Counted from the stretch's first letter, positions 11,917-60,300 are shown. The stretch: DNA of 64,000 nt from Mugil cephalus (GCF_022458985.1 NC_061789.1:11479707-11543706); one strand, 5' to 3'. Translations and numbers: made by a program. Notes: generated from the sequence alone by a model not told the origin.

Positions 11917-12237
<321 letters not shown>

Positions 12238-23500: not shown

Positions 23501-23657
23501 GGTTAACGAGAGGAGCTTTTAACGAGCTTGGGAGAGGTGCAGAATCAGACGCACAACAACCCACACAGGAAGGATAATCGTTTCAACATGTCATGCCATC
23601 TTGCAGGAATACATCGTGCACGAGCGAATACTGCTGCAAAACCTACTCACCGGGACG

Positions 23658-23688
<31 letters not shown>

Positions 23689-25120
23689 AATTACTACGAC
23701 GTCGTTAGCCATAGCTAGAGGGCACGTCTGATAAATAATACAAAATAATAATAATAAAAAAGAAATATAGAAAATAAATTAATGAATATACAACATAAGA
23801 AACGTAGACAGTCTTAAGATACTTCTATCATACAGTCTCTTTATGAATAAAAGAAAAGTTCTAAGTAATTTTTAATTATCGAGCAGCGATTAGCTAACGT
23901 GACTTCCGCTTTCGAGATCCGGCAGAATAAAGACGTTTAACAGCCTACTGAAAATAAATTTCCTCTTATGAACTTGGACTTGGAATATTTGGTAACTTAC
24001 AATTTATTAAATAACTATTTTAAAAAAATATTATTGAATTTGAATTTTATGTGTTTTTTAAAAAAATATTTATTAAAATATTCATTATTCTTATCTATCA
24101 TTTTATTATTCTTATTTGATGATTTAAAAAAAATGTATACATTGACATTATTTTTAAAATATTATCTATCATTATTATTCATAATTTGTTATTGTTTTTT
24201 AAATATACATTTTGTTTAATGTCACGTACCCTCTGGAGTACCTTCAAGTAGTATATACAAAAAAGAGAGAGAAAACAACTCAGTAAAGTATCCGTTTTTA
24301 ATATTGGTAAGTATACCAGCAGCAGCAGCAGCACACAGGTCTTAACGTAGGAACAACAGCACTTTTTAAGGCAAAGAGAAAAACTACACAACCTCCACCA
24401 CAGAAGTAGAAATGCTCAATACAGACTATACGTTTATATTTGTTAATTTCTGTGGCTATAGTGCAAAGCAGAAAGGGAAATCTTTGGCTTTTAGGTGTCA
24501 ACAAAGTAAACAAAAAGTTATGAAGTTGTTAGGCACAATTATTCCATTAACAGCATCAGTTCACTGACACATCACATGTTGTCAGTTCTGCTCTGTCAAA
24601 ACTCAGAGTCTCATTTCTTCTGTAAAGTAATGATCAGTAACAGTGAGCATCGCGTCTACGTTGTACAACCTGGAGAAAATAAACCAAGGACGTGAGTCTG
24701 CTTCCCTGCTCCGTCTGAAAGTGTGTCATCTAATAAACAAACAGCAAATTTTATTTTTAGAGGTCTGACATTTTTATGCAGAGAGTGAAATGCGTTTTAA
24801 TATTAGACGACCCACTTTTATGTAAGAACAATGAAACAGTTCCTTTTATTTCTCATGCTGAGTTTTGAACATAGAATTTTGATTGTAGAGAAGCAGTGAA
24901 TCTAAGGATTCAGTAACTTCCTGGTTATATAAACTGGACAAACTTTGTTTAATTTTTCTGATCCAAGCATAAGATAGAAAGTATAGAAAAAAGGGTTTTC
25001 TTTTAAGCTTGTTTGTTTATTTTAATTGTTCACGCTGTACATTTGCATGAACATAATTCTAGTAAACATTACTTGTGGCGCGGTCAGCTTTTTTTATTTT
25101 TATATTTCCCCTCCCCTTCC

Positions 25121-25252
25121 TCACGGTGCTGAACCCTGTCCCAACCCTGGCAGCGCCCCCAGCAGGCCGTTGGCCGTAGTGAAGAGGTTTATGGGAGACG
25201 AGCCATCCGTGATGAGGGTGGACTTGAGCCCCAGAGCCTGGAGCATCTTCAC
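25121..25252 (-). CDS. mvp: mvp copy 1, exon 16 (last; stop at 25121-25123)
   Basis: Acceptor cctacag|GTG. Encodes [43 protein letters not shown] (human ...[32 protein letters not shown]...). An AATAAA signal on the minus strand lies at about 25015-25020. Confidence 0.85.
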
Positions 25253-25368
25253 CTGTAGGAAACAAACCACTGTGAGTTTAAAATCCTGCACAAAGTCAAG
25301 GTACTTCTAATGAGCCGCTTTACGTCCTCTCTGAAGTAGATTTTAATTTCTAGTTTTTGGTACGGTAC

Positions 25369-25557
25369 CTGCAGCTCTGGTCCGGCTCTGGCGATCTCCT
25401 TCAGCGTGTCACTGCCCAGACTCTCCACCAGCTTCTTGAAGCGGGCACTTTCGATTTGAGCCAGACGCTCCTGCTTCTCCACCTCCAGATTATCCATCTC
25501 CTTCTTATAGTTGAGCTCCTGCTCACGCGCCTTCGCCAGGCGCTGGAGCTCCGCCTC
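25369..25557 (-). CDS. mvp: mvp copy 1, exon 15
   Basis: Acceptor gtgtgcgcag|GAG, donor CAG|gtaccg. Encodes EAELQRLAKAREQELNYKKEMDNLEVEKQERLAQIESARFKKLVESLGSDTLKEIARAGPELQ. Confidence 0.85.
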
Positions 25558-27029
25558 CTGCGCACACACACAGAAAAAAAAAAAACACAGATGAAAACAA
25601 ACTTCTGATTAAATCATTTTGGTGACCGACATGCTGTAGAGATGAAAGTCATATGTACTTAACAGAGCTTTAAGGTTGGCATTAAACAAAACGTGCAGCC
25701 GATTATCCCAGCGCATGCTGTTGTGGGCGGAAGTAGAGATGGTAGTGTATGTTATCGAGCTTACTGTCCGGTGGGAAGACAGAGTTGAGGAGGCTAATGA
25801 GCGCGAGAGAGCTCGATATTCAGAGATGGCAGCAGAAGCTGAGCAGCGAGGGTAGAGCGACTGCGTGCGGCCGGTGGAGGTGGGTTGCCGTGGAACCCAC
25901 CATCTCCTGTGTGAGCTGGGCATTCGTGGGAGAGAACAAAGGGTGACATGTCCCTGGCAGCAGAGCGATCAAGTGAGTGGCTGTGGCTGAGGAGGAAACA
26001 TGCTAGCTGGGGAGCATGCTGGGGAGCAAGGTTAGGCTAGCTGGTTTTAGTAGTTAGTAGTAGGGCTAAGCTAATCTCTCGGTTGAAAGTTACACGGTTG
26101 TGTGGTGGCAGCATGGAGAGGGGGCCCCCCAAGACACTGGAACTTACTGTTCAGCCTTCTTGAGGTGTCGTGGGCCTTAACAAAACATCGGTGAAGGGAG
26201 GTGCCCACTTGAAAACCCCAAAGATGTGTCGCGTACTGCCTATTGCCGTTGGCTAGGCTAGTTAGATGGCATCTTCTTGTTGGTTGCTAACCGGTAGCTG
26301 ACAGCGAGCCTGCTGGTCGGTTTTTCAGTTGGACTGGGCTTCTAAAGTCAGCCCTGGATGCCTAAATATTGAGCAAAAAATGACCATACTCCATCAGTTT
26401 ATTTATAAGAAGGAAAATAAAGCAATGCAAGCAATTTTCTACCTAAATAAAATTGCCAAAAAGCAAAAAATTTCCCCTTGCTGACAAAAAGAACTTTTTT
26501 TTAATTAGTATTTTTTAAAGAAATTTCTTTGAAATGCCCTAAAACATTTAACACCTCGGCAGGCTTTCTGTGAGCTCCAAACCACCACGCGTCCCAACAT
26601 CCACAGGCCCAATTTCCCTATTTTTGATATGAAAATTAGGTTGGTTGGAAATTTAGTTTTTGTAGTAGCGACACAGCCAAGTCGTTTCAGCATCTCAGAG
26701 GCGTGCAGTAAGAGACATGCAGCAGCCCACAGTTATCCACTGAAAAGCTGCCAACACCGGCCGGGTTCTTATTCTTGTACTTACCATTACCATTTCGTTA
26801 CAGTACTCCATCCTCTTTTCTACCTACAAAGTCTTCTGAAATCCAGTTCCTCAAATTATTCTCCTCCTCCTCTTGCGTCTACTCCTGTTGATTCTATCAC
26901 TCCCAGCTCCTCCTTTTTTCACAGCTGCTAATTATTGGCATCTCTACATCAGTCGTACCAGCAGCTCCGGTGTATTTTATTGAGCTCATGCGTGGAGTTT
27001 TATGCTAAGAACAGTAAGAGTGGGCGTAC

Positions 27030-27156
27030 CGCCTCGATCCTTTGAGCCTCTGCCTTCAGTTTGGCCTCGCTGACTGCCGCCTCTCCCTGGATGCGAGCCG
27101 CCTCAGCGCGGGACTGAGCCTCCGCCTTAGCAGCTCCCGTGCTCTCCACCGCAGCG
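27030..27156 (-). CDS. mvp: mvp copy 1, exon 14
   Basis: Acceptor tgtgtttcag|C, donor GCG|gtacgc. Encodes (S)[42 protein letters not shown]. Confidence 0.85.
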
Positions 27157-27269
27157 CTGAAACACAAGCGCCATCGATTCACTGGGACATTTATACTAAA
27201 CAGTTGCATGGACTCAGCCTCATCAGGCTTCATAGTTTAACATCATTCAACATCAAGGTGTGCATTCAC

Positions 27270-27386
27270 CTGAGCGCCTCCAGCTCCAGCAGTTCCTTCC
27301 TGGCTTTCTCCGCCTGGGCCTGGTCGGTGATCTTCTGCCTCTCCAGCTTCCCCCGAGCCTCCTGCTCCAGACGCTCCGCCTCATGT
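27270..27386 (-). CDS. mvp: mvp copy 1, exon 13
   Basis: Acceptor gtgtgcag|A, donor AG|gtgaat. Encodes (R)[38 protein letters not shown] (human [38 protein letters not shown]). Confidence 0.85.
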
Positions 27387-27472
27387 CTGCACACCAACAA
27401 CACGTCATGAAGCCCGGCGGCTTTTCAGCAGCGCTAACCGCTCAAAATCTCAAACTTGTGTGTCTGTGTGAC

Positions 27473-27684
27473 CGTGCGGCCGCCTCCTGGGAGTTGGTGG
27501 TGATCTCGATGGCCAGCTGGACGCTCTTCTGCAGGGCGTCTCGGGTCCTCTGGTCGACAGGCTCCACGGACTGGATGTCCACGCTGCTGATCACCAAGTT
27601 GTTCTGTTTGAAGCAAAGGTTGGGGCGGATCGCCATCTTCTCGTCGAAGCCGAACACAGCGGAACAGATGATCCGGTTGGAGTT
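27473..27684 (-). CDS. mvp: mvp copy 1, exon 12
   Basis: Acceptor tcgtctgcag|AAC, donor CG|gtcaca. Encodes [70 protein letters not shown]. Confidence 0.85.
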
Positions 27685-27809
27685 CTGCAGACGAGACAGA
27701 ACTTAAGATTTAAGAAAGATGTTTCTCTGGAATAAAGGGATATAGATTTTGGTCCATTGTCTACAAACTAGTTCGTCATTTTTTTTAGTAAAAAAACAAA
27801 CACACTAAC

Positions 27810-27954
27810 CTTATGGAAATCATCAAACTGCACCGAGGCGACGGCTCCTCTGATCTTGGAAGCGATGGCTTTACAGGCATCTCCCACAAAGTCAGGAACT
27901 GAAAACAGAGTTGCTGCAGAAGCAGAGTCGGCCGGCAACTTGATGTCAAAGTGC
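27810..27954 (-). CDS. mvp: mvp copy 1, exon 11
   Basis: Acceptor ctcttcag|G, donor AAG|gttagt. Encodes (W)[48 protein letters not shown]. Confidence 0.85.
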
Positions 27955-28052
27955 CTGAAGAGGGAAACACAGTGAAGACCTGTGTTACAGATGATTGTGA
28001 TCATGAAATAGTAAAACCGGAGGTGTTTTCCGGCGTTGGACTGTGTGGTTAC

Positions 28053-28250
28053 CAGTTGTAGGAGAGCTGCAGCTGCAGGCGGGCGTGGTCCGCCGTCTCT
28101 ATGGTGATGATGTCAGTGAAGAAGTCTGGCCCCAGCAGGAGGCAGATGGCCTTGATGACGTTGGGCCTCTTCGGTTTGTCCCCGGACAGCGACAGCACGG
28201 TGAAATGCTCATCGGGTCCCAGCATCACCAAGTCCGGCCCAAACATCACC
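28053..28250 (-). CDS. mvp: mvp copy 1, exon 10
   Basis: Acceptor tgtctgcag|G, donor TG|gtaacc. Encodes (R)[65 protein letters not shown]. Confidence 0.85.
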
Positions 28251-28326
28251 CTGCAGACACAACACGATCAGCTCCTCTATCCAACCTCTACACCCAACAC
28301 CCACACAGTCAGGAGAGACGCCCCAC

Positions 28327-28562
28327 CTGGCTTTCTTCTCTCTGTAGTCGTACACCTGGACAGCGGCGTTGTGAGGGACCCTGTAGGAGACCACCCTGGT
28401 CTTCTCCCTCCGCCCGTCCTCTCCCATATTTTGGCGGTCGGAGCGGTCGGACAGCGGGTCGAGGCGGGCGGCCAGCAAGGCCTCGACCTTTGGAGGAAGC
28501 TCCTTCTCCCACAGCTCCTCATCCTGGGTCAGCATGTAGGTGTGACCGATCACCGCTCGCAC
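28327..28562 (-). CDS. mvp: mvp copy 1, exon 9
   Basis: Acceptor cctctcag|GTG, donor AG|gtgggg. Encodes [78 protein letters not shown]. Confidence 0.85.
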
Positions 28563-28633
28563 CTGAGAGGCCGACGGCACACGGTTAGCTCATAGTCACA
28601 TGAAGCCGGAGCAGAAAACCAGTTAGCTCGCAC

Positions 28634-28864
28634 CTTTCCAGTCTTGTTGTCCCTGACGTAGATCCCCTCGTTCTCGTCCAGGGGGATGGCCTCTTGCCTC
28701 AGCACCACCTCCACCGTGGCGGGGGGGACGTACTCGATGGGGCCCCGCAGCATCCAGCGGTCTCCGGGGCGACGGAGGATGCCGCTCCTCCGGGTGCGCT
28801 TAGGCCTGCTCTCCATGGCCCCCTCCTCTTCCTCCTCCTCCTCCTCGTAGTCCTGCTCCATGTG
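28634..28864 (-). CDS. mvp: mvp copy 1, exon 8 (carries a lineage-specific poly-Glu plus basic insertion)
   Basis: Acceptor tctctgccag|CAC, donor AAG|gtgcga. Encodes [77 protein letters not shown] (human ...[57 protein letters not shown]). Confidence 0.85.
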
Positions 28865-28924
28865 CTGGCAGAGAGAATGGGGCAGAGACAGGAGGGGGGT
28901 GGAAATAAAGGTTAATGTGGGGAT

Positions 28925-28975
28925 GCATTGGCGTGGAGGAGGAGAAGGAGGAGGAGATGGAGGAGGAGAGGGGAT
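28925..28975. repeat. 12-bp minisatellite (ggaggaggagaa)n in mvp intron 7, 3 units here versus 6 in the paralog at 46525-46612
   Basis: Unit 1 reads ggaggaggagaa ggaggaggagat ggaggaggagag. Unit 2 has ggaggaggagaa five times, then ggaggaggagag. Confidence 0.8.
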
Positions 28976-30371
28976 CGGAGGAAGGCACTGATTAAAAACA
29001 ACAGAGTAAGTGAAAAAATAAAGCGATGGAGTAATAAAAAGAAGAAGAAATGAACGGAGGGACGTCGGGAGAGAAACAAAGAAAAGTGTGTGATGAGTTA
29101 GCAGGAAGAAAAAATGAGGACTTTGACACGATGTCACCTGACCCACAGGTGTGTCTCACCTTTCTACCTACATACCAGAGCTGCTTTAAGAACGTACAGG
29201 TGGTCTTTCTTCCAGACACGCCTCTGTGAAAGCACTATTTGATTTTCTAATCTCCTCCACCTGCTGCTTGAGGACCGGTTACACAAGATCAATGGTGCAA
29301 TGTACATCTCCTCCACCTGTCACTGCAGCAGCTCCTCACACAGAGGACGGACGGGGTTAATGTGTTTGAGCTGGGCGTTGACTGTCAGATTCCTGTAGTT
29401 CACCGGGACAAAGTGCGCAAGGGGCGAATGGCAGGGTGAAGAAATCTAAGCCACGCTGCAGTGAAATATGACAGCAGCTCAACCAAGATGCTCCTGCTAC
29501 ATAACAATCAGGGTGACCCCTCTGCTTCCCACCACTTAGTGACAGCAATGTGTCACTCAGTCGTTTAACAAGCTCCAACCCCAAAATGCAGCGTTTTTGT
29601 GCAAATATCGAATCAAAAAGTGTCAAAAAGTCTACATTTTAATTAGACTTGATGTCAATTTCATTGTTCTTTTTATTGTGTTAAACTTTTCTTATTTTTA
29701 ATAGGGCTGGGCGGTATGACAAAAAAATTATTTTTTTGTTCACAACATTTTCTACGGGTTGAGAGAGGAGTTAATACAGGAGATTGACTGAGGATGGACT
29801 ATTTTACTGCGATTATGGGTAAATGTTGGTGTGGAAATTTACAGCTCAGAGATAAAAAACTAATTAAATGTCATTAATATAACATGAAGAAACAAGGACA
29901 ATTATTGTTTCATTTATTTTTACATATTTATTCATATTTAAACTACTATATCTGTAATGTTCATAGCAGCGCAGATGGCTACTGTAATAGTTGTAGTCTG
30001 CGCGCAACATTTTTTTGTCATTCATAAAAGATAAAATTGGGGACACTTCCTGGGATCTCGGTGATAATAAAACCAACTTGAGGCTTTAAACCTGTTCTTG
30101 TTGCAGCTTCGTGTTTCCTGAACTTTTAGCCTGTCTGGCGTCCTGTTGTTTCGTGCAGCTTTACGTACGCATGATGAACCACATTGGTTTCAGCTTGTTA
30201 CACTGTAGTAGATTTGATTCAGTTATTGAAAACAAATCAAACCAACACAGTGGTAACATCTGAATCGCCACCGGGGCCACTTTGTCCCGGAAAAGTTGGA
30301 CCCCGAGGTCAAAAAGTTTGAAGACACCTGCTCTATAGGACGTCCACTTTTCCGAATCAGTCTGCCCTCAC

Positions 30372-30497
30372 CTCCTCGGTGTCGGTGAAGGCCTCCACGG
30401 CTCGCAGCACCAGGCCCTCCTCCTCCGACAGCACGTACACGTCCTGGATGCCCTGTTCAAGATGCTCACCCGGCTGCAGGAAAAAGGAGCGCTCACC
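30372..30497 (-). CDS. mvp: mvp copy 1, exon 7
   Basis: Acceptor cctccttccag|GGT, donor GAG|gtgagg. Encodes [42 protein letters not shown]. Confidence 0.85.
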
Positions 30498-30586
30498 CTG
30501 GAAGGAGGTAGATTAGTGTTTTTTTTGATTGATTGGGTATGTGACTTTACTATAAACACTAAACACTGTATCCGGAGGCATCTCAC

Positions 30587-30823
30587 CTTCACCACCTTCT
30601 TCTTTCCCAGCTGAGGCTTGCCGTCGTGCCCGACCGGGTCCAGGATCACGCAGTACTGCCTGCTGCTCAGGGTGGTCACGTTTACCACGCCCACCACCTC
30701 CTCCGCCACAGAGGGGATGTGGGCCTCCCTGTCGGCCATGGTGACCAGCCACTCCTCCCCCGTGCGGCGGTCCTGTCCGCCGGCGTCTTTGAAGGGCCGC
30801 AGGGCGCGGACGTGCAGCGCTTT
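30587..30823 (-). CDS. mvp: mvp copy 1, exon 6
   Basis: Acceptor gcgcctccag|AAA, donor AAG|gtgaga. 237 nt encoding [79 protein letters not shown]. Confidence 0.85.
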
Positions 30824-31191
30824 CTGGAGGCGCAGCAAAGATATGTCAGACGGTCCGCAGCTGTTTGTGAACGCACCATAATTGAAGTTTCTAAGAGCTG
30901 CGTCCAGGCACATATATAATTAGAAGTGTCTCCGTCATAAAGATGCTGCTGAGACGTTAATAACCACTGTTTTATCTACAATCCTGTTCTCAACCGTTCT
31001 GTTGTTTATTCACTTCTGGGTTTGTAAAATAGGAAGTAGCAAGAAATCTATGTCACAGTTCCGCAGTTTTTTTATACATGTCACCTGAGCCACATAGTGG
31101 TAACCACATGATTCTTACTTGGCCGTGAAAACAGGAAGTGGCCTCTATCTTTACAGCAAGTGGAAACAGAAACAGATGAAGCGGAGAGTCA

Positions 31192-31286
31192 CCTTGTCGG
31201 TGAGGATGAAGGCGTTGACGATGTCGATGACCTCCTCGTGAGCACCTGGAAGGTACGCGCCCACTTTGCAGACCAGCCACTCGTCG
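31192..31286 (-). CDS. mvp: mvp copy 1, exon 5
   Basis: Acceptor aaatgtgcag|GC, donor AAG|gtgact. Encodes (G)[31 protein letters not shown]. Confidence 0.85.
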
Positions 31287-31437
31287 CCTGCACATTTAGC
31301 CACGAGTGGGAAAAAAAAAACGTGACAGGAAGGAGAAGAGAAAGAAACCTTAAATCTTTGTCTTTCTAATCTATTGTTGGTATTATGTGAAGTGTTCTGT
31401 GTGAAGAAAGTTTGATTTTTGTGTGTGTGTCTGTTAC

Positions 31438-31569
31438 CTGTGACCCTCTGGACTCCGCCTCGGTCTTTGCCCTCCTTGCGAGCTCTCAGCCTGATGGCCT
31501 GGTTCTCTCGGATCACTGTGGCCTTGATGGTCTCCAGAACCGCCACCTCCTTCCTGGGGATGTAGGTCC
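31438..31569 (-). CDS. mvp: mvp copy 1, exon 4
   Basis: Acceptor ttcttccag|GG, donor ACAG|gtaaca. Encodes (G)[43 protein letters not shown]. Confidence 0.85.
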
Positions 31570-31821
31570 CTGGAAGAAAACCAGATGTTGTTAGTGGGGA
31601 TCTTTGGGTCCTATGGGTTGAGGGGAGGGGCCTCTGTGGGTCATCTCACAGATACTTGATCAGTTTGGGATCTGGTGAATTGGATTTCAGGAACGATGGG
31701 GCTGATCTGTTCAGAAATCTGGAGGAAAAATATTCCTTGGGGAAAACATCAAGAATAAAAGAAAGTGACCAAAAGGCTTGAAGATGCACTGAGAGTTTTT
31801 CCAGGAGCTGTGGGATCCCAC

Positions 31822-31945
31822 CTGGTCCTTCGAACAACCACTCGTCTCCGGCCACTCTCTTCTCCCCTCCCGCCTCCTCAAAGTCCAGCAGAGCCTGCAG
31901 ACGCAGCGCCGTGTCCGGATACACGATCTGCAGAGGTGTCGGATC
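31822..31945 (-). CDS. mvp: mvp copy 1, exon 3
   Basis: Acceptor ttctccttcag|GAT, donor CCAG|gtggga. Encodes [41 protein letters not shown]. Confidence 0.85.
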
Positions 31946-32073
31946 CTGAAGGAGAAAAACAAACAAACAAAAAAAAAGATTACCTTTCTCAACGTAGTTT
32001 CTCTTTATTTAAAGACTGACTTTTATTCTAATCTTTTGATTACAATAATCTAAAGCCTGGTTTCCATGCCAAC

Positions 32074-32269
32074 CTTCTGGATCTCCTCTCCTGGGTACAG
32101 AGGGAACGGGTCCTGCGTCAGGCGGATCTCCAGGTCGGCGTGACGCAGCTTGGCTTGACCCGATTGGTCAAACAAAACCTGGCCGTTGTCGTCACGGGCA
32201 ACGGGGTTGGCGATAACGCAGTAGTGACGCGGTGCAACCATCGTCATACGAACCGGTAAAAAGAGCACT
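32074..32269 (-). CDS. mvp: mvp copy 1, exon 2
   Basis: Acceptor ttttttaacag|A, donor AAG|gttggc. Encodes (R)[65 protein letters not shown]. Confidence 0.85.
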
Positions 32270-32408
32270 CTGTTAAAAAAGAAAAAAAAGAAACTGATGT
32301 TAAATTCTGATTTGAATAAGAGATGTGAGACACTGACTGGAAATGGAGCTGAAACTACATGAAAGACAATCAAACTCCAGCAGCTACAACACAGAGAGTC
32401 TGTCCCAC

Positions 32409-32527
32409 CTCTCATTGTCCTGGCGGATGTAGGTGAGTGGTCCAACCTCCACGCGGGCGATGTTGGTGTTCTGGTCCAGGACGTGGATATAGTGATGAGG
32501 AGGGATGCGGATGATGGATGCATCCAT
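32409..32527 (-). CDS. mvp: mvp copy 1, first coding exon (start codon ambiguous)
   Basis: Donor GAG AG|gtggga. The ATG at 32525-32527 gives [39 protein letters not shown] (human [41 protein letters not shown]). In-frame ATGs also lie upstream at 32537-32539 (MEAL, not conserved in the other copies) and 32570-32575 (MMSKK...). A candidate acceptor cctgtgcag sits at 32588-32596, so the true start may be [12 protein letters not shown]..., which would put the exon's upper end near 32575-32587. Confidence 0.7.
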
Positions 32528-32639
32528 CAGGGCTTCCATCTCAGGCCCACGGTTTCCACCCTTCTTAGACATCATGGCAAAGAAACGCTGCACAGGAACA
32601 GAAACATGTGGAGGGCTTTAGGTCCACGCCATGTACGGA

Positions 32640-33180
32640 TTCCACTGAACACCCCGACCCCTACGGCTAAACTGACTGTTGATACGAACACAGACAAAAG
32701 AAGCAAGTACGAACAGACAAAGAATGCAAAAAAAAAAAGATTCAAAAAGACACAAAAAAAGACCCCAAACACACAAAAAATTATCATCAAGTTGCAAAAA
32801 GCAGCCACAACGACACAAATAACCAGAAACTGACAAAATACAATGACAACAGATGAAAAAAACAAAACTCAATAATGAAAATACAATGTGGGCACATAAA
32901 ACACCCACAAAGATAAAAACACAAAAAAACAAAACAACTTCAAAGATGCAAAAGAAGCACACCTGGTAATATCTAAAAAACAACCTCAAAGTTGAAAAAA
33001 AATAAGATCTCAGACACAAAAACAACCACAAGAAAGTAGAAAACCCCACAAAGATGCACAAAACAACCACTACAAAGCCAAAAAAGATCTCAAAGACAAA
33101 AGAACAACCAAAAACACATAGAAATGCAACAGAAGGAGAAAAAAATATGTAAAAACAACAACAACAAAAAACATTAAAGG
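32640..33180. repeat. A-rich low-complexity tract (degenerate CAAAAA/ACAAAA repeats) immediately 5' of mvp exon 1
   Basis: Visible as caaaaagacacaaaaaaagaccccaaacacacaaaaaatt... and it generates the spurious F/L-rich minus-strand ORFs 32572..33070. The paralogous tract is at about 50290..50830. Confidence 0.7.
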
Positions 33181-34780: not shown

Positions 34781-34952
34781 CCAGTGTTTCCCAGTCCTGC
34801 ATGTTTTAGATGTTTTCCTCCTCCACCACACCTGATTCAAATGAGTGGCTCGTTATCAGGCCACTGATCATTTGAATCAGGTGTGTTGGAGCAGGAAACA
34901 TCTAAAACATGCAGGGCAGTGTTCCTCGAGGACCAGGATTGGGAAACACTGG
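34781..34952. mobile_element. hAT-like palindromic MITE (172 bp) with 8-bp target-site duplication
   Basis: Termini CCAGTGTTTCCCAGTCCTG...CAGGATTGGGAAACACTGG are perfect inverted repeats, and the whole element is a near-perfect hairpin. It is flanked by TCTATAGA (34773-34780) and TCTATAGT (34953-34960). The paralog at 52385-52556 has a TIR point change (CCGGTG). Confidence 0.7.
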
Positions 34953-48930: not shown

Positions 48931-51900
48931 CTGCACATTTAGCCACGAGTGGGAAAAAAAAAACGTGACAGGAAGGAGAAGAGAAAGAAACCTTAAATCT
49001 TTGTCTTTCTAATCTATTGTTGGTATTATGTGAAGTGTTCCGTGTGAAGAAAGTTTGATTTTTGTGTGTGTGTCTGTTACCTGTGATCCTCTGGACTCCG
49101 CCTCGGTCTTTGCCCTCCTTGCGAGCTCTCAGCCTGATGGCCTGGTTCTCTCGGATCACTGTGGCCTTGATGGTCTCCAGAACCGCCACCTCCTTCCTGG
49201 GGATGTAGGTCCCTGGAAGAAAACCAGATGTTGTTAGTGGGGATCTTTGGGTCCTATGGGTTGAGGGGAGGGGCCTCTGTGGGTCATCTCACAGATACTT
49301 GATCAGTTTGGGATCTGGTGAATTGGATTTCAGGAACGATGGGGCTGATCTGTTCAGAAATCTGGAGGAAAAATATTCCTGGGGGGAAAACATCAAGAAT
49401 AAAAGAAAGTGACCAAAAGGCTTGAAGATGCACTGAGAGTTCTTCCAGGAGCTGTGGGATCCCACCTGGTCCTTCGAACAGCCACTCGTCTCCGGCCACT
49501 CTCTTCTCCCCTCCCACCTCCTCAAAGTCCAGCAGAGCCTGCAGACGCAGCGCCGTGTCCGGATACACGATCTGCAGAGGTGTCGGATCCTGAAGGAGAA
49601 AAACAAACAAACAAAAAAAAGATTACCTTTCTCAACGTAGTTTCTCTTTATTTAAAGACTGACTTTTATTCTAATCTTTTGATTACAATAATCTAAAGCC
49701 TGGTTTCCATGCCAACCTTCTGGATCTCCTCTCCTGGGTACAGAGGGAACGGGTCCTGCGTCAGGCGGATCTCCAGGTCGGCGTGACGCAGCTTGGCTTG
49801 ACCCGATTGGTCAAACAAAACCTGGCCGTTGTCGTCACGGGCAACGGGGTTGGCGATAACGCAGTAGTGACGCGGTGCAACCATCGTCATACGAACCGGT
49901 AAAAAGAGCACTCTGTTAAAAAAGAAAAAAAAGAAACTGATGTTAAATTCTGATTTGAATAAGAGATGTGACACACTGACTGGAAATGGAGCTGAAACTA
50001 AATGGAAGACAATCAAACTCCAGCAGCTACAACACAGAGAGTCTGTCCCACCTCTCATTGTCCTGGCGGATGTAGGTGAGTGGTCCGACCTCCACGCGGG
50101 CGATGTTGGTGTTCTGGTCCAGGACGTGGATATAGTGATGAGGAGGGATGCGGATGATGGACGCATCCATCAGGGCTTCCACCTCAGGCCCACGGTTTCC
50201 GCCCTTCTTAGACATCATGGCAAAGAAACGCTGCACAGGAAAAGAAACATGTGGAGGGCTTTAGGTCCACGCCATGTACGGATTCCACTGAACACCCCGA
50301 CCCCTACGGCTAAACTGACTGTTGATACGAACACAGACAAAAGAGGCAAGTATGAAGAGACAAAGAATGCAAAAAAAAGATTCAAAAAGACACAAAAAAA
50401 GACCCCAAACACACAAAAAATTATCATAAAGTTGCAAAAAGCAGCCACAACGACACAAGTAACCAGAAACTGACAAAATACAATGACAACAGATGGAAAA
50501 AAAAAAAACTCAATGATGAAAATACAATGTGGGCACATAAGACACCCACAAAGATAAAAACACAAAAAACAAAACAACTACAAAGATGCAAAAGACACAC
50601 ACCTGGTAATATCTAAAAAAACAACCTCAAAGTTGAAAAAAAAAAGATCTCAGACACAAAAACAACCACAAGAAAGTAGAAAACCCCACAAAGATGCACA
50701 AAACAACCACTACAAAACCAAAAAAAAAAGATCTCAAAGACAGAAGAACAACCAAAAAAACATAAAAATACAACAAAGATGCAACAGAAGGAGAAAAAAA
50801 TATGTAAAAACAACAACAACAAAAAATATTAAAGGATCTTTATTCTTTTATGCGCCAGTATTCATCATTGTGAATGTATGTGTGGATGTTCTGTCTCCAC
50901 ATCTCAACCATGAATCTAACTGATGACAGATCAATGGACGACAGATTAACTGAGCTTATTAGACAAGCTCTGGTTTAATTCATTTTTATCAGTTTAAAGT
51001 CAACTAAACAAGTTGAGCGTGTCCACTTGGGTGAACACTGAGATCACAGAGAAGTGCAAGAAAAAAAAAAAAGAACAGAGACACACCTTGGTGCAAAGTC
51101 AACCCCAGACGGGTTTATCTCGTTTATCTTGTGACACAATCGACGATTGTTGCTGATTGAATAGTACGAGTCAGTTTACTGAGCATCAGAACGACATCTG
51201 AGCGTCAGCAAGACACAATCTGGGGCCAGTAACCAATGGGACGGTCGATGGGAAAATAAGACGGGGAAATAATGTGATGGACGTCTGTTGCAAATGCGTC
51301 AAGAGAAAATGTCATGAATCAGCTCTTCTCACCGCTATCATAAAAGTCTTTAAGAATACATGCAGCTCATGTGACAAACACGAATCAGTGCATCAATAGA
51401 AAAATCAAAAAGACTTAATCGGAATCTACCTGGACAACGTATGTGCATGTAAACACGTGACTCCGACTAAAATCAGAGTTCTCTTTATCCAATTAAGACG
51501 CCCAGATACTGTGATTGGAATTCCGTTTTCTCTGCCATGTATACGCCTTAATTGGACTACAATCGGATAAGGCATGTGCACCTGCTCTACAACCGCTGCA
51601 CTGGCACGTGACCCCTAAACAAAAACATCGAAGAAAGCCGATCGCAGAAGAAGTTATTAGATTTTCTTCGGTGCATGTAAACTCGGACAAGGACTGTAGT
51701 CAGAAAGTCGAGTTTTGAGCATAGCTCGGTTAAGCTCTGCATGTAAATGCACTGACTGTCGGGACTCAGCCCATTCAAGGCCGCATGGCTCCACTTGTTC
51801 CCCAGACAAAGAAGGTCTTTGAACTCAACCTCCCAGCAGCCTTCACCTTTTTACATCTAGGTGTGAAACCTCCACTCTTGAGGGGGCGGCGGCTTCCCCT

Positions 51901-53796
51901 TACTCTCTTCTCTTAAGCTGTATTTCCATACACAGCCTACCTCTACACCACTGCGCACCACAAACTTTAAATTGCCATTTCCGTTGATAGAAGGTGGGCC
52001 AAACGAGGCCAAAGGGATACTTTTCCAGGACTTAAAAGTACCTCCTCTGTGGTTGGGCCGAAGTAGGTGAATTGGAGTTGAAAATGTGAAGTAAAATGCT
52101 GCTTACTACTGATTGGTTAGAAGAAAAAAAAAAATTGTCACGATGCAGCGCCAGGTACAAAGCTGGATGTTTTGACCAGACGGACACTCCTAAGCAATGG
52201 AAAAGGTAGTTAAAAAAAGGTGGTGAGATGTGGAGTTGTTTAGCGGTAGGCTGCATATGGAAATCTGGGCCTAGTTAGCTTATCTTGCACATAACTTGAC
52301 CAAGCATAGAATACTTCAACCTTGCCAATGTATGTATTGATTGAAACTGGTAAAATACTTTAGCTCGTGGCTGTTGTCTATAGACCGGTGTTTCCCAGTC
52401 CTGCATGTTTTAGATGTTTTCCTCCTCCACCACACCTGATTCAAATGAGTGGCTCGTTATCAGGCCACTGATCATTTGAATCAGGTGTGTTGGAGCAGGA
52501 AACATCTAAAACATGCAGGGCAGTGTTCCTCGAGGACCAGGATTGGGAAACACTGGTCTATAGTCTATAGTCAGTAAACCTGTAACTTGAATTTGAAAAT
52601 CGTGGTGAACAAAGGACACACCTTTGTTCCCCTCACATCACATGTTGGCCTTAGCGTCCATCATGGAGACCAGTTGTTTGTAAACCTCTTTGTCTCTGGA
52701 CCTTTCGCATTGTTTCCCTCACATAGACACTTGGCTTCTTCACACTAACACACACATATCCACATGTGTACATAGTTAAGTGTTTAAAGTTTTGTTATTT
52801 CAGTTTTTAAATGTGTCTGATAAAATTCCTTGAAACTTGAAACGTTGCTCATCTGTTAATGTTGTAGAGGAGTGAATGTGCCAACCTCTACACTGTAGAA
52901 CCCTTAAATCCTTCAAATTTGCTACTATTAATAAGGTAATATTGTTTGTGATTATTAAGTTAATTATGAAGTTAATTAACAACATTCAGTGTTAATAGTT
53001 AGCATACCCACCTTTATGAGACAGATTTGTTAAATAACTGAATTTTGATTAATTTCTGACTTTTAATTCTTCATATGTCAGTGATGGCATCACAATTTTT
53101 CATAAAAAAATAAAATAAAATAAAAACACTGACATATAAAGGGTTAAAAGTCAGAAATTTATCAAACTTTTGGTATTATACTTAGTAAAGAAGTGGATTA
53201 AATGATTCAGGTTAAAAAGTAGAAAAAAATATTGAATTAAATATTATATTAAATTAAAATATGCTATATAATATGCTTCAGGGCATTTTTGTCCCTTAAT
53301 GGTAACAACGTAATAATTTTATAATCAGGTATGAGGATTAAATTCTCCCTGAAGCAGAATAAATAGGTGTGTGTGACTTTTACTTGGAAACCCTCCCTCT
53401 GAGGTCATTAAACAGCTGATTCATGCAAAGGCAAAAATCCACTCCAGAGAGCCTGCTCCTGTCTAAAACATGGTCCGGACGAATCTCAACAGACAGTACG
53501 CATCTTTACATTGCATCCTGGTTTACACTCAACACCAGTAAACAGCAAACAAAAAAAAGAAACTGCCAAACCACTTCCGCATGATATACCTCAACGACAA
53601 ACTGCATGAGAAATAGTGTTCATGTAAATTCCCAGGCCTCGCAAAAGACAAACATTGACATTTATACGATTTACAGGCTTTAGGATTTACATAAATGTTT
53701 CATATTTATTTTTAATATTTAACCCGTGAATCCAAAGGGAGATTGCAGAGAAGAGTTGTGGAGAAGACGCACTCGGAAATTGCTCCAGCGTCTTAC

Positions 53797-53950
53797 CTGT
53801 GCTCTTTGCGGCTGTACGGGCAGACGTGCGGCCGAATCCAGGCGGAAAGAGTCAATTTTAAGAAAATGAGAATAAGTTCACAGAGTAAGAGGCCGCAGAC
53901 GGAAAGGAGATTCGTCTGACGGGAAATGTGTGTCGTTTGTGCGTCAGCAA
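53797..53950 (-). promoter_or_regulatory. Element Y copy Y3 (candidate promoter/non-coding exon 1 of mvp copy 2)
   Basis: Paralog of Y1 with the same CAAAGAGCACAG|gtaagacg donor and upstream CACGTG. Confidence 0.3.
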
Positions 53951-54683
53951 CAGTCACGTGGGTAAAAAAAGAAATATAGAAAATAAATGAGAAAACATTT
54001 ATGAGACAACATAAGAAACGTAGACAGTCTTCAGATACTTATATTATACGGTCTCCTTATGAATAAAAGAAAAGTTCTGAGTAATTTTTAATTATCGAGC
54101 AGCGATTAGTTAACGTGACTTCCGCTTTCGAGATCCGGCGGAATAAAGACATTTAACAGCCTACTGAAAATAAATTTCCTTTTATGAACTTGCACTTGGA
54201 ATATTTAGTAACTTACAATTGGAACATTTATTAAATAACAATTTTTTAAAAATATAGTTGAATTTTTATGTTTTTTTTTTAATTTTTATTAAAATGTTTA
54301 TTATTCTTATCTGTCATTTTATTATTCTTACTTATGTGATTATTTCCAAAAATATATATACATTGACATTATTTTTAAAATATTATCTATCATTATTATT
54401 TATAATTTGTTATTGTTTTTTAAAATATACATTTTGTTTAATCTCACGTACCCCCTGGAGTACCTTCAAGTAGTATATACGGTCAATGATACCCCCAGGA
54501 CATTTTGAGAACCATGATCTCCATACATCCACTGAATATCACCCTACTGTATACCCACTGTTGTAGTTGATTTTAAGTAGTGCAAGTATTTTAAACTTTG
54601 TAAAGAAAGTAGAACGTTCCATAAATAAAAAAAATAAAAAAAAAGAGAGAAAACACCTCAGTAAAGTGTCAGTTTTTAAAATT

Positions 54684-56320
54684 GTTAAGTATACCAGCAG
54701 CAGTACTCGATGGGGCCCCGCAGCATCCAGTGGTCTCCGGGGCGACGGAGGATGCCAATCCTCCCCCATGCGGCGGTCCTGTCAGCAAAGATATGTCAGA
54801 CGGTCCAAAGGAAGGAGAAGAGAAAGAAACCTTAAATCTTTGTCTTTCTAATCTATTGTTGGTATTATGTGGAGTGTTCTGTGTGAAGAAAGTTTGATTT
54901 TTGTGTGTGTGTCTGTTACCTGTGACCCTCTGGACTCCTCCTCGGTCTTTGCCCTCCTTGCGAGCTCTCAGCCTGATGGCCTGGTTCTCTCGGATCACTG
55001 TGGCCTTGATGGTCTCCAGAACCGCCACCTCCTTCCTGGGGATGTAGGTCCCTGGAAGAAAACCAGATGTTGTTAGTGGGGATCTTTGGGTCCTATGGGT
55101 TGAGGGGAGGGGCCTCTGTGGGTCATCTCACAGATACTTGATCAGTTTGGGATCTGGTGAATTTGATTTCAGGAACGATGGGGCTGATCTGTTCAGAAAT
55201 CTGGAGGAAAAATATTCCTGGGGGGAAAACATCAAGAATAAAAGAAAGTGACCAAAAGGCTTGAAGATGCACTGAGAGTTCTTCCAGGAGCTGTGGGATC
55301 CCACCTGGTCCTTCGAACAGCCACTCGTCTCCGGCCACTCTCTTCTCCCCTCCCACCTCCTCAAAGTCCAGCAGAGCCTGCAGACGCAGCGCCGTGTCCG
55401 GATACACGATCTGCAGAGGTGTCGGGTCCTGAAGGAGAAAAACAAACAAACAAACAAAAGATTACCTTTCTCACAGTAGTTTCTCTTTATTTTAAGACTG
55501 ACTTTTATTCTAATCTTTTGATTACAATAATCTAAAGCCTGGTTTCCATGCCGACCTTCTGGACCTCCTCTCCAGGGTACAGAGGGAACGGGTCCTGCGT
55601 CAGGCGGATCTCCAGGTCGGCGTGACGCAGCTTGGCTTGACCCGATTGGTCAAACAAAACCTGGCCGTTGTCGTCACGGGCAACGGGGTTGGCGATAACG
55701 CAGTAGTGACGCGGCGGAACCATCGTCATACGAACCGGTAAAAAGAGCACTCTGTTAAAAAAGAAAATAAAAAAACTGATGTTAAATTCTGATTTGAATA
55801 AGAGATGTGAGACACTGACTGGAAATGGAGCTGAAACTACATGGAAGACAATCAAACTCCAGCAGCTACAACACAGAGGGTCTGTCCCACCTCTCATTGT
55901 CCTGGCGGATGTAGGTGAGTGGTCCGACCTCCACACGGGTGATGTTGGTGTTCTGGTCCAGGACGTGGATATAGTGATGAGGAGGGATGCGGATGATGGA
56001 CGCATCCATCAGGGCTTCCACCTCAGGCCCACGGTTTCCGCCCTTCTTAGACATCATGGCAAAGAAACGCTGCACAGGAAAAGAAACATGTGGAGAGCTT
56101 TAGGTCCACGCCATGTACGGACTCCACTGAACACCCCGACCCCTACGGCTAAACTGACTGTTGATACGAACACAGACAAAAGAACCAAGTACGAAGAGAC
56201 AAAGGATGCAAAAAAAAAAAAGATTCAAAAATACACAAAAAAAATATCATAAAGATGCAAAAAGCAGCCACAACGACACAAGTAACCTGAAACCGACAAA
56301 ATACAATGACAACAGATGAT
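54684..56320 (-). pseudogene. mvp: Truncated mvp 5' fragment (copy 4), the duplicate of copy 3 with the identical mosaic junction
   Basis: Exon 1 is 55891..56009, exon 2 55556..55751, exon 3 about 55305..55428, exon 4 about 54920..55051. The junction pieces at 54704-54810 match 37105-37211. Because the same junction is in both, the truncation predates the 17.6 kb duplication. Confidence 0.75.
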
Positions 56321-57172
56321 GGAAAAAAAACACTGACATATAAAGGGTTAAAAGTCAGAAATTTATCAAACTTTTGGTATTATACTTAGTAAAGAAGTGG
56401 ATTAAATGATTCAGTTTAAAAAGTAGAAAAAAATATTAAATTAAAATTCTCCCTGAAGCAGAATAAATAGGTGTGTGTGACTTTTACTTGGAAGATCTCC
56501 CTCTAAGGTCATTAATGCAAAACAGCTGATTCATGCAAAGGCAAAAATACACTCCAAAGAGCCTGCTCCTGTCTAAAACACGGTCCGGATGAATCTCATC
56601 AGACTGTACACATCTTTACATTGCATTCTGGTTTTGTTGTATATTGATGCGCTGAAGAAAGAAGTGATCACCGCTTAAAAAGGTTTATTTACAAGAAAGA
56701 ACAATGTCAAAAACTCAGCCGAATCTGAGAGGGCTTCTCGTTCAGCTCCACCATACACACACAAAACTTATGTCCTTATATCTGGTTAGTTTTAAGATCT
56801 GGCATTTGGTAAATTACTTTTTGACCTCAAACATACACACTTTATACACACTTCATATACACAAAAGGGAAAGAAGAGAAAAACAAGAAGATAATTTACT
56901 ACAGTTTCCACTCAACATCCGCAAACCAACAAAAGAACCTGCCAAACCACTTCCGCATGATAAACCTCAACGTCAAACTGCATGAGAAATAGTGTTAATT
57001 TAAAGTCCCAGGCCTTGCAAGAGACAAACATTGACATTTATACGATTTACATGCTTTAGGATTAACATAAACGTTTCATCTTTATTTTTAATTTTTAACC
57101 CGTGAATCCAAAGAGAGATTGCAGAGAAGAGTTCTGGAGAAGATGCACTTGGAAATTGGTCCAGCGTCTTAC

Positions 57173-57350
57173 CTGTGCTCTTTGCGGCTGTACGGGAAGA
57201 CGGGAAGACGGTCGGCTGCTCAAGCGAGAGGCCGCAGACGGCGAGCGAGGGGGAGATTGTTCTCTGTTACCGGAAGGGGAGGAGAGGTCGCGTCAGTTTC
57301 TGGGTAGTAGCAGTGACGTAGGACGTATTTCAGTAGCTCAGGAAATCTCC
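57173..57350 (-). promoter_or_regulatory. Element Y copy Y4, 5' of truncated fragment copy 4
   Basis: Paralog of Y2. Confidence 0.3.
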
Positions 57351-60300
57351 TAATCTCCTAATTTATAATCAGTTAGTCCCTTAGAATAAATATCTGTAAG
57401 TTATTTATTTTATTATTATTATTTTTAAAAACTTTATATAACAATGGCTTACTCATTTTTGACACTTTACTCATAATTAACATTTTAAAAAGCCTTTATG
57501 CTGGCACAAGAGCACACAACAAGATTAAGGGTATTACTTCTGACAAATATTCAATCAGTAAATACGAACAGATGACAGACCACATACAGTCTTAAAACGT
57601 CAATGAATTTTGTAAAAGATGTCAATAGTAGTGTCATGTGAAAGAAATGATGCATTAAAACATTAAAATAGTGCACTTGGACTGATGAAGCATGGGTAAA
57701 AACTTAGTTTAGTTTATTTCGAACAAGTTAAAGGCAAACAAAATAATCATACACCATACAAGGGACATAAAGAACCTAAACAACAAAAAGAAAATGAAAA
57801 ATAAAGTTAAAATTACAAATTCTACATGTCCAAAAAGAAGTGGGAGGAAGTACAGACTTATTTTATCACACCCCTTCTTAATAGATCAATAGTATTTGTA
57901 TATTTGTATAATCATAGCAATATTCTGTTTTGAAATCTGTGTTTGTGCCTTCTTCACTGCTGCACAGGTCTTCCACCCTTGTCCCCATTCATGTGTCGAG
58001 GCTTTGTAAGGTGTCTCCTAAAGCCAATGATTAGTTCATTTTCATTTATTTGGACTACTTATGGGCCCAAACAAAGAATGACAGTATGTATAGACCATTG
58101 GGAAAATCTGGATATCCTAAAGCAAAATGCCAGGCACCACTTTATATTCTGTTTGATGTAGCTCAGTCTCAGTAAAAAACTTAAGAAAAAATAAAACACA
58201 GGCTCAGGATAACATTATAGGTATTTAATGGGTAAACAAACAATTCAGCTGAGAGGACAAAGAATGAACAACACAAGAGGGAATATCAAAAGAAAAGCAC
58301 GCACACAGATAACATCCAGCTCCAGTTTAATCCTTACATGTTTAATTTGTTTTTTTAAACCACTATTTTAATGTTTTTCTGTCAAAGATATTGTTTATCC
58401 AACTAGAACAGAGTAAAATAGAATATTTCTGAATATGAAGCATTGTGTGAAAGGTTTAAAATGATTGCTTAAAGAGAAGTTAAATAAGGTGACACAAAGT
58501 AATGTAGAACTTTTAATGAAGTTCATCATGTTTATCTATTCAATGCTGGCCAGTGGAGTTCCTCAGGGAATGATGTTGGGTCTTCTTTATCTTCAATTTT
58601 TTTTCTATAAACTTTTGATTATTTTTTTCAAAAAAAGTTCTTCATGATTAAATCTTCTTAATTTTAGGTTATGAACCACCGATGAGCTACAGTTCATCTT
58701 TCCAATGGTTCAGCTAAGAAACAAAATCTATGTTTTATATCCAAGATTTTTCTTGAGAGGCTTTCTACTCTTTTTTTCCACTGTATTTTTTAAAGCACTA
58801 TAAATAAAGGTTTACTCAATAACGTTTCAATGTAGATGCATGTTTTAAAATAAGAACTACCTCCAGACTGATTTGACACCCCGGTTGGAGGTATTCTCTA
58901 CCAGACAACTGTGAAATACATGTTGCAATTCATATATATATATATAAAAGACTATAGTACATACATTACATTATTATTACATTATATACCAGCTTTTGTT
59001 AAAAGTTATAATTCTTTCAGTCTTGGTCAAAACTGCTACCTTCCTGTGAGTGCTTCACAAAAAAGCCCCACCGCTTATTTCACCTTTGGAAGCCTTGAAC
59101 TGTCAACATTAAAAAACAAAAACAAAAAAAAAAAAAACACACACACACATCATAAATAGTTCTGAAAACTGAAGTTTTGTTTTAAGTCTTTCATATTGAG
59201 AACAGTGTTGGGGTAAGGAGGGACTTTCCTGAGAATCAGAAATCTAAAACAGAGCATCTCATTCACACAGAGGTCACATGATCACGGGACAACAACAGAC
59301 ACACCAGATTTAACAGTCTTTTTTTTTTTTTTTTACAAATATAACACGTTCATAGAGCTATGGCATGCTATATATGAACACATGATCGATACGTCGCAGG
59401 CTGAAAACAACATTTCATAAACAAACAACAGACAGTAACAGCGAGATCAGGATTGTTTTTAAAGGAATTGTAAGTGAAAATATTTCAGGGAAATCTGTAC
59501 AGACTTTGGTTGAATATGTGCTCCTGTAGTGTACAATATACATATATAGATAACTCTAAATTTAAATACTAATTTGACTAAAATGAATATCAAAAAATAG
59601 TATATGTATATAACTGACACGTCACATGCCGCCTTCCACTGTGCACACATGTGATCTGAGCTGAACATGCTTCTCTTCCCTTTGTATAAACAACACAAGC
59701 GAGCAGTTAATCAGGTCTATAGGAGCTTCACAAAAACACACATGTAGAAAAGGTCAGTTTGAACAGAACAGACACACTGATTAAGATTAAAACGCCACGT
59801 AAGATTGATTGGTATAAAATAGATTTCTTTAAATATCACAAAGGTAAAATTTGAAATGGTCAGACGCAGCGATGAAAGAGCTGGAGAGAAACGAGACTGT
59901 CCAGGTTTTGTTCCAGCAAAAAGAACACTGAGTTTAGTACGAAAGAAATGGTAAAATTATAGGCCTGGATGAGGATAAAGACAGAAACAAGTGGATAGAA
60001 TCCATTTTCGTGTCCTTCTGATGAATCCCCGCCCGTCTTTTAGCTCTGCTTTTGGTCTCCACCAGCTCCAGAAAGTCACCGCTGTGAGCTAAAGGCAGGA
60101 AATGTTCTGAAAACCCAAACAATAAGCTAAAACAGGCTAAAAAGCTCCCGAGTGTGTTAAAGTGCAACAACAGCTGACGTTGGCTCCTAAAAAACCTTCA
60201 ACTCCCAATAAAATAAAATAAAAAAATCTTCTCTAGATATTTCTGCAAGATTGATGTTTGTAATTGCAGTAACTTATCCGTTAGCATAATGCAGCTAGAG

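Follow-up and report, generated by a model that had tools for sequence, protein, structure and literature searches.

The gene for the major vault protein (MVP) is normally present once in a vertebrate genome, which raises the question of how a locus in the mullet Mugil cephalus came to hold four mvp-derived segments, and how many of these are working genes. The locus lies in a stretch of 64,000 nucleotides (GCF_022458985.1, NC_061789.1:11479707-11543706), referred to below in its entirety as the window, with positions counted from its first letter. Our analysis indicates that a single mvp gene is probably at work here, next to a young duplicate that is probably in decay and two 5′ stubs, which may provide alternative promoters and first exons.

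The initial annotation, made from the sequence alone, described four mvp-derived segments in tandem units of about 17.6 kb with ~98-99% identity. All four segments were recovered by alignment, and they fall in two head-to-tail units of 17.65 kb each, with no N runs within the whole window. Self-BLAST returned one single alignment of 17,751 columns (23570-41217 versus 41223-58775) with 226 mismatches and 42 gap openings, corresponding to 97.0% identity when gaps are counted. MAFFT alignment of the two units gave 17,225 matches, 225 mismatches (1.29% of 17,450 aligned bases), and 306 gap columns, placing identity over aligned bases at 98.7%; homology of unit 2 may extend for another ~10 bp, across a 5-bp indel (CTGTA). 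The gap columns represent 39 indels, including 19 of 1 bp, five of 26-54 bp (the 54-bp one at 34225), and 11 that change the length of a homopolymer. Each unit contains one mvp gene of 16 coding exons, on the minus strand in both cases, and a stub made of exons 1-4 that lies about 4.7 kb upstream in the same orientation. The substitutions between units have a transition/transversion ratio of 1.47, and CpG transitions account for 18% of the changes at positions that make up 6% of the bases; together with the 26-54 bp structural indels, these properties make the differences look like real mutations. Divergence is over-dispersed along the unit (index 3.2, p = 8e-10), a pattern that fits further gene conversion and allelic recombination equally. 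A GGAGGAGGAGAA repeat in the intron that precedes exon 8 has 2.9 copies in unit 1 (28935-28969) and 5.9 copies in unit 2 (46533-46603), and the resulting 36-bp difference in length could be used as a unit-specific marker.

We measured the junction between the units at 41222/41223, against an earlier placement at 41224/41225. At this point, the end of unit 1 (...CTACTCTTTTTCTGTA) meets the start of unit 2 (AAGGATAATC...). Because the joint is blunt, without a shared repeat and with at most 1 bp of microhomology, it looks like the product of a non-homologous or replicative event rather than of unequal crossing-over between repeats. The head-to-tail arrangement is bounded by single-copy flanks without relation to the ends of the units. 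On the left, the breakpoints of the younger duplication (23570) and of an older one described below (~23756) are 190 bp apart and flank a T26 tract and an AT-rich 13-mer repeat; the region 23570-23780 may be a recurrent breakage or template-switch site.

The identity of the gene is firmly that of mvp. A splice-aware model of copy 1 was first open for 875 amino acids from an ATG at 32539, and this product is 100% identical to major vault protein-like isoform X1 of Mugil cephalus, with the next species at ~90%. Because outgroup fish MVPs begin 12 residues upstream of this position, the start codon was placed at the ATG at 32575, and the resulting protein of 887 residues is identical to RefSeq XP_047427480-82 (isoform X1). 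The 16-exon gene first annotated at 25121-32527 is thus present, with a coding sequence (CDS) measured at 25121-32575. The protein matches the Pfam families Vault (207 bits), MVP_shoulder (173), Vault_3 (128), Vault_2 (126), and Vault_4 (75), all above gathering cut-offs, and its residues 6-867 align with residues 4-853 of the solved rat and human MVP chains (1247-1269 bits, E = 0). Its genomic position, between caskin and a CD225/PRRT2-like gene, is the orthologous one. We propose that copy 1, which is intact, is the working mvp gene.

Several further observations concern the gene itself. Codon 68 (exon 2, ~32234) encodes Ala in both full copies and Pro in both stubs, in 117 of 118 other fish MVPs (motif MV-P-PRHYC) and, presumably, in rat MVP; on this comparison, Ala is a derived change at a near-invariant site of the working gene, with the stubs keeping the ancestral state. 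Exon 8 (28700-28864; residues ~359-395 of the 887-residue protein) encodes an acidic, low-complexity insert between repeat domains. Other fish MVPs have a comparable acidic stretch there, variable in length and sequence, and rat MVP presumably has only a short stretch, EEGESEE. In each of the four copies, an AG acceptor (CTGTGCAG / CGTTTCTTTGCCATG) precedes the start codon by 15 nt (32576-32590 and equivalents). This hints at a first exon that is spliced and non-coding; such an exon may explain why RefSeq lists three transcripts (XP_047427480-82) for the one X1 protein. A Rfam scan of the whole window, covering for example vault RNA and intronic snoRNAs, gave no matches. Among the database proteins, an 878-residue protein of Sarotherodon galilaeus has all MVP domains and is 89% identical, yet is labelled "voltage-gated sodium channel type V alpha", which looks like a public annotation error.

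Copy 2 presents a different picture. It retains all 15 introns with GT-AG boundaries, and its 30 splice sites, stop codon, and promoter-proximal sequence are intact, so that the 16 exons annotated at 42731-50170 do stand, within a measured extent of 42731-50218. As assembled, the gene is nevertheless not intact: exon 6 has lost 1 bp (C5 to C4 on the plus strand at 48387/48388), and the reading frame is shifted as a result. The run is C5 in copy 1 and in the exon 6 slivers of both stubs, and C4 in copy 2 is the derived state because both stubs keep C5. The CDS of copy 2 differs from that of copy 1 by 27 substitutions, 19 synonymous and eight nonsynonymous, for a ratio of nonsynonymous to synonymous change per site (pN/pS) of 0.13. 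When the eight replacements were polarised against 118 outgroup fish MVPs, copy 2 was derived at V205I, G216D, A217V, F531L, and H628R, five sites at which 117-118 of the 118 outgroup sequences agree, and also at R820H, where 117 of 118 have R or K. Two of these changes, G216D and A217V, are adjacent and fall in the invariant motif KVGAYLPG. In copy 1, derived residues were confined to positions 13 and 146, both of which vary among the outgroups. All six derived replacements at conserved sites therefore lie on copy 2 (binomial p = 0.03), as would be expected if copy 2 had evolved under relaxed constraint compared with its parent gene, a relaxation that the pN/pS of 0.13 would make recent or partial. 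To speak of two full mvp genes, or of a copy-number expansion of the vault component, as in the first readings of the locus, is an overstatement in light of the frameshift and these six replacements. Copy 2 is best described as an unprocessed duplicate that is probably dead or dying.

A lost start codon in copy 2 (ATG to GTG at 50182) was considered and rejected, since outgroups conserve the ATG further upstream as their start and vary at position 13. Exon 11 (27810-27954 versus 45433-45577) concentrates six substitutions in 145 bp, or 4.1% compared to a CDS average of 1.0%, and the adjoining introns carry indels of 12 and 26 bp between copies. Searches for traces of copy 2 in protein databases returned little: the frameshift-corrected protein is not in the protein collection, while X1 and isoform X3 are; a 127-residue copy 2-type peptide (exons 4-6) searched against a collection of 5.8 billion proteins matched only single-exon open reading frames (ORFs) of other fish, at 92% identity or less; and no independent Mugil-type sequence with I205, D216, and V217 was found in the protein collection, where the only Mugil-type entries are RefSeq proteins. 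An exact look-up of the two MVP proteins for their genomic context found no indexed contig on record.

The stubs record an older event. Sensitive alignment of 36300-41222 with 23570-36365 produced eight segments, strictly collinear and on one strand. They comprise the mvp 3′ flank (block A; 36366-36880 and 37034-37104, matching 23756-24325), slivers of exon 8 (62 bp), exon 6 (33 bp), and intron 5 (24 bp), a 1.5-kb segment in which exons 4-1 are accompanied by some of intron 4 and by the 294 bp preceding the start codon, and three upstream blocks (block Y; 38723-39690, matching 35523-36303). The stub sub-unit measures 3.3 kb against 12.6 kb for the full sub-unit, so that ~9.3 kb are missing. 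The slivers of stub 1 are joined at microhomologies, such as CTCCTCC between the exon 8 and exon 6 pieces, which fits microhomology-mediated deletion or template switching. Stub 2 has scars of identical architecture at an offset of +17,599 bp; every deletion breakpoint is common to both stubs, and the erosion therefore predates the younger duplication. In agreement with this order, 25 sites support the tree ((full1,full2),(stub1,stub2)) and four conflict with it among the 1,518 columns common to the four copies. The annotation had put forward a two-step history in which a block of ~12.6 kb was duplicated with a junction at 36355, one copy then lost about 9 kb, and the resulting block of ~17.6 kb was duplicated in turn. 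The order is upheld by the collinear stub sub-unit, the common breakpoints, and the 25 versus four sites, and the junction was found at about 36355-36366. The older partial duplication stands under every reading of the locus, since deletions totalling 9 kb separate the stub from the full copy.

The segment missing upstream of the stubs includes a 2.65-kb block (32869-35523), the ends of which show no terminal inverted repeats or target-site duplication. A transposon insertion would thus be without support from the block ends, and the block may have been either gained or lost. At 34764-34969 and 35429-35578, the block contains nested inverted repeats (arms of 36, 31, and 20 nt, 89-100% complementary) and a hairpin with 51-nt arms, which have a look reminiscent of miniature inverted-repeat transposable elements.

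Divergence between stub and full copy is not uniform. The A and Y blocks of the older pair differ at 86 of 1,107 positions (7.8%), whereas the 5′ mvp block together with 35523-35642 differs at 46 of 1,620 (2.8%), and the two classes are statistically distinct (Fisher p = 6e-9). Coding constraint cannot explain the low-divergence tract, because its non-exonic part is also only 2.9-3.3% diverged. Most likely, the stub and the full copy exchanged a conversion tract at some time following the first duplication, which gives substance, for the older pair, to an earlier suggestion that the copies were being homogenised by gene conversion. If neutral sites in teleosts change at ~3e-9 per site per year, a value of our choosing, the 1.3% divergence of the units would translate into ~2 million years and the 7.8% of the older pair into ~13 million years, both to be taken as rough figures.

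Both stubs are preserved well enough to raise the possibility of a role. The exon 1-4 fragments, first delimited as homology blocks at 37085-38722 and 54684-56320, matched in our alignments, with coding exons at 37321-38458 and 54920-56057. Their exons have the same lengths as exons 1-4 of the full copies, from which they differ by 2-3%, and exon 5 is missing from both. Replacements are few; among them, A40T is common to both stubs, and R23Q and P131L are private to stub 1. RefSeq isoform X3 (XP_047427484) carries the stub 1 residues Q23, T40, P68, V119, and L131 through exon 4 and copy 1 residues thereafter; judged by these residues, the X3 model is stub 1 exons 1-4 joined to copy 1 exons 5-16, through a splice that spans a 6-kb intron holding copy 1's own exons 1-4. 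The stubs have an open frame, splice signals, the right orientation, and a position upstream of an acceptor-bearing exon, all of which are features of an alternative 5′ block. They could accordingly be transcribed and spliced, and a stub can plausibly supply a second promoter together with its own version of exons 1-4, to be joined by splicing to exon 5 of the full copy that lies downstream. With exons and splice sites intact and the stub 1 exons used in X3, the stubs do not appear to be inert debris. A stub-specific base located 19 nt from the end of exon 4 would distinguish reads across a stub junction from reads across a full-copy junction.

We next turn to related fish, since the premise of the annotation was that MVP is normally single-copy. 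Five Ovalentaria loci were compared, those of Parambassis ranga, Melanotaenia boesemani, Oreochromis niloticus, Odontesthes bonariensis, and Girardinichthys multiradiatus. Each had one MVP exon set with no stub within 10 kb of mvp, and caskin lay upstream of mvp wherever the flank was annotated. Because these five relatives show a single mvp exon set, the nested structure is, on present sampling, specific to the mullet lineage. The Parambassis ranga assembly (GCA_900634625.2) contains an identical 862-residue MVP twice, at LR131980.1:7239277-7264802 and 7390105-7415630, about 150 kb apart. Both loci have caskin upstream and CD225 downstream and their DNA is 97.9-99.9% identical, so that the pair may reflect a segmental duplication of very recent date or, alternatively, a haplotype retained in that assembly. 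A literature search on MVP duplication in mullet or teleosts found nothing specific.

On balance, we lean towards a real nested tandem duplication with a relaxed copy 2. Several points weigh against this interpretation. The younger duplication rests on one contig assembled by wtdbg2 from PacBio continuous long reads (CLR). The sole disabling lesion of copy 2 is a 1-bp homopolymer change in a stretch where Illumina polishing could not work: the nearest copy-distinguishing substitutions lie 173 and 251 bp away, leaving 424 bp without any, and polishing would be blind there because short reads cannot be assigned to a copy. The frameshift may thus be a residual consensus error. A pN/pS of 0.13 implies that copy 2 was not neutral for most of the time since the split, and in the 5′ 1.5 kb, copy 1 has 12 private changes and copy 2 four, the opposite of a faster decay of copy 2. 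As for the stubs, intact frames at such low divergence are, by our estimate, not significant evidence of selection, and isoform X3 could be a read-mapping artefact among exons that are 97% identical.

It is unlikely, in our judgement, that the younger duplication is an assembly artefact in which two haplotypes of one heterozygous locus were placed in tandem, next to an older partial duplication that would still be real. A divergence of 1.3% plus indels is a level possible between haplotypes of a highly polymorphic marine fish, the over-dispersion along the unit is expected of recombining alleles, and a pN/pS of 0.13 resembles polymorphism in a constrained gene. The Parambassis ranga assembly moreover holds a comparable near-identical pair. 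The source assembly, CIBA_Mcephalus_1.1 (GCA_022458985.1), is a single one, built with wtdbg2.5 from CLR subreads >30 kb at ~160x, with Illumina reads alone used for polishing (POLCA) and Hi-C for scaffolding, and the genome paper mentions no haplotig purging. However, the whole structure is inside one contig, with no gap, N, or contig end at the junction or the copies, and the subreads are long enough to span the 17.6-kb unit. At this read length and depth, the wtdbg2 graph would favour collapse, as this assembler tends to collapse repeats rather than duplicate them. The copies also do not behave as equivalent alleles, as six conserved-site replacements and a frameshift on one and none on the other would need a long period of relaxed constraint, not expected of an allele that segregates in a conserved gene. 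Because this decay is asymmetric, all of it on copy 2, true paralogy is favoured over retained haplotypes, and we infer that the younger duplication exists in the animal.

It also seems improbable that a real duplication has left the mullet with two functional full copies, giving a doubled dosage or two slightly different MVP subunits. This reading would treat the exon 6 frameshift as a CLR homopolymer error, and the lesion is indeed of the G5/G4 type, as are 11 of the 39 indels between units, at a site that polishing could not see. The preserved splice sites, stop codon, and promoter-proximal sequence of copy 2 agree with it, as does the pN/pS of 0.13, which would rise to ~0.2 on the copy 2 branch if, by our estimate, synonymous changes are split equally. 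Against it stand the six derived replacements at conserved positions, including the adjacent pair in KVGAYLPG, all on copy 2, and the lack in the protein collection both of a RefSeq protein for a corrected copy 2, though X1 and X3 are present, and of any independent Mugil-type sequence with copy 2 residues.

The stub might have arisen in a single replicative template-switching event (fork stalling and template switching or microhomology-mediated break-induced replication, FoSTeS/MMBIR) that copied disjoint collinear pieces. Such an origin, which we consider distinctly unlikely, would account for several collinear slivers of 24-71 bp joined with 1-11 nt of microhomology, but serial microhomology-mediated deletions leave the same scars, and pieces that are perfectly collinear and all on one strand are what a duplication with later deletions would most simply give. 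Because eight segments are strictly collinear on the same strand, we rejected the idea that blocks A and Y are independently inserted transposons.

The history that we propose for a real nested duplication would have four steps. First, a block of ~12.6 kb reaching from the mvp 3′ flank through mvp to ~3.8 kb upstream would have been duplicated head to tail. The upstream copy would then have lost ~9.3 kb by several microhomology-flanked deletions, leaving the promoter region and exons 1-4 plus the exon 6 and exon 8 slivers. A gene-conversion tract, or an equivalent later event, would next have re-homogenised the 5′ mvp of stub and full copy to ~2.8%, with A and Y remaining at ~7.8%. Finally, the 17.65-kb composite would have been duplicated through a blunt non-homologous junction, with its left breakpoint at most 190 bp from the older one, beside the T26 tract.

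Compared with known systems, the locus shares with vertebrate MVP in a 16p11.2-type neighbourhood the set of five domains, the end-to-end alignment with rat and human vaults, and the caskin and CD225/PRRT2-like neighbours, and its protein is 87-90% identical to other percomorph MVPs. It differs in that the other fish loci examined have one exon set, whereas the mullet has two full sets and two exon 1-4 stubs. Copy 2 resembles young unprocessed pseudogenes in tandem segmental duplications: its introns, splice sites, and promoter are still present, identity with the parent is 98.7%, and alongside the frameshift there are more derived replacements at conserved sites than in the parent. It departs from them in that its single lesion is possibly an assembly error and its average constraint since the split looks strong (pN/pS 0.13). 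With haplotypic false duplications, the locus has in common adjacent near-identical copies of a normally single-copy gene in one assembly without reported purging; unlike them, it has a gap-free junction and one copy that is strongly asymmetric in decay. Several MVP paralogues per genome are known from Dictyostelium (MvpA/MvpB) and from trypanosomes and Leishmania (PMC3595041, PMC12547018). The mullet is similar in having more than one MVP-coding sequence in its genome, but those paralogues are old, diverged, and shown to co-assemble, while the mullet copies differ by at most 1% in protein and perhaps only one of them is used.

Table. Coordinates of the duplicated mvp segments, their junctions, and neighbouring features in the window.
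Feature	Position	Strand	Description
Duplication unit 1	23570-41222		17,653 bp; mvp copy 1 and upstream stub 1; self-BLAST and MAFFT versus unit 2
Duplication unit 2	41223-58775		17,553 bp; mvp copy 2 and upstream stub 2; self-BLAST and MAFFT
Younger duplication junction	41218-41227 (point 41222/41223)		Blunt; no long repeat, no N, ≤1 bp microhomology
T26 tract	23663-23688		Between left breakpoints of both duplications (23570, ~23756)
mvp copy 1	25121-32575	-	Intact 887-residue CDS, 16 coding exons, all introns GT-AG
Copy 1 exons 1-8	32575-32409, 32269-32074, 31945-31822, 31569-31438, 31287-31193, 30823-30587, 30497-30372, 28864-28634	-	
Copy 1 exons 9-16	28562-28327, 28250-28053, 27954-27810, 27684-27473, 27386-27270, 27156-27030, 25557-25369, 25252-25121	-	
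mvp copy 2	42731-50218	-	16 exons as copy 1, all splice sites intact; exon 6 frameshift
Stub 1, mvp exons 1-4	37321-38458 (38458-38292, 38152-37957, 37829-37706, 37452-37321)	-	Open frame, AG/GT intact
Stub 2, mvp exons 1-4	54920-56057 (56057-55891, 55751-55556, 55428-55305, 55051-54920)	-	Open frame, AG/GT intact
Older tandem junction	36330-36366 (junction ~36355-36366)		End of upstream block Y meets start of A′ (matches 23756)
A′	36366-36880		Copy of mvp 3′ flank 23756-24258; 7.5% substitution divergence
Y′	38723-39690		Copies of 35523-35642 (97.5% identical), 35741-35925 (90%), and 35946-36303 (88%)
Stub 1 deletion scars	37034-37209		3′-flank piece = 24255-24325; exon 8 sliver = 28730-28791; exon 6 sliver = 30748-30780; intron 5 sliver = 30833-30856
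caskin 3′ exons	59386-64000	-	Single-copy flank upstream of mvp; exon 61544-63232 matches Pfam Caskin-Pro-rich
CD225/PRRT2-like gene	11181-13600	+	Single-copy flank downstream of mvp

Two further features of the window lie outside the duplicated units. At its left edge, positions 337-1443 on the minus strand hold a 368-residue ORF with C2H2 zinc fingers. A block of ~130 bp at 21950-22080 has a protein-level match downstream of the Melanotaenia mvp (71-77% identity) and no Pfam match.

The event itself looks like an ordinary lineage-specific segmental duplication, a familiar process rather than a new kind of biology. The mullet locus lies in the fish region that corresponds to human 16p11.2, a neighbourhood in which copy number readily changes, and we know of no indication that MVP function is dosage-critical. 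For users of the M. cephalus reference, reads from mvp will map to multiple positions, which will make single-nucleotide polymorphism calls and expression estimates at mvp unreliable, RefSeq isoforms X1 and X3 mix exons of different duplicate segments, and only one mvp copy looks fully sound. It is highly doubtful, though conceivable, that mullet MVP subunits come with alternative N-termini (stub-type or full-type residues 1-206), possibly joined by the product of copy 2. The N-terminal repeat domains of solved vaults form the waist where the vault halves meet; if such subunits were made, vaults could be heteromeric and the association of half-vaults altered, a parallel among vertebrates to the vaults that Dictyostelium and trypanosomes build from several paralogues. 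If the nested structure is real, it would offer a clean, datable case of nested tandem duplication, microhomology-mediated erosion, gene conversion, and early pseudogenisation in a conserved single-copy gene.

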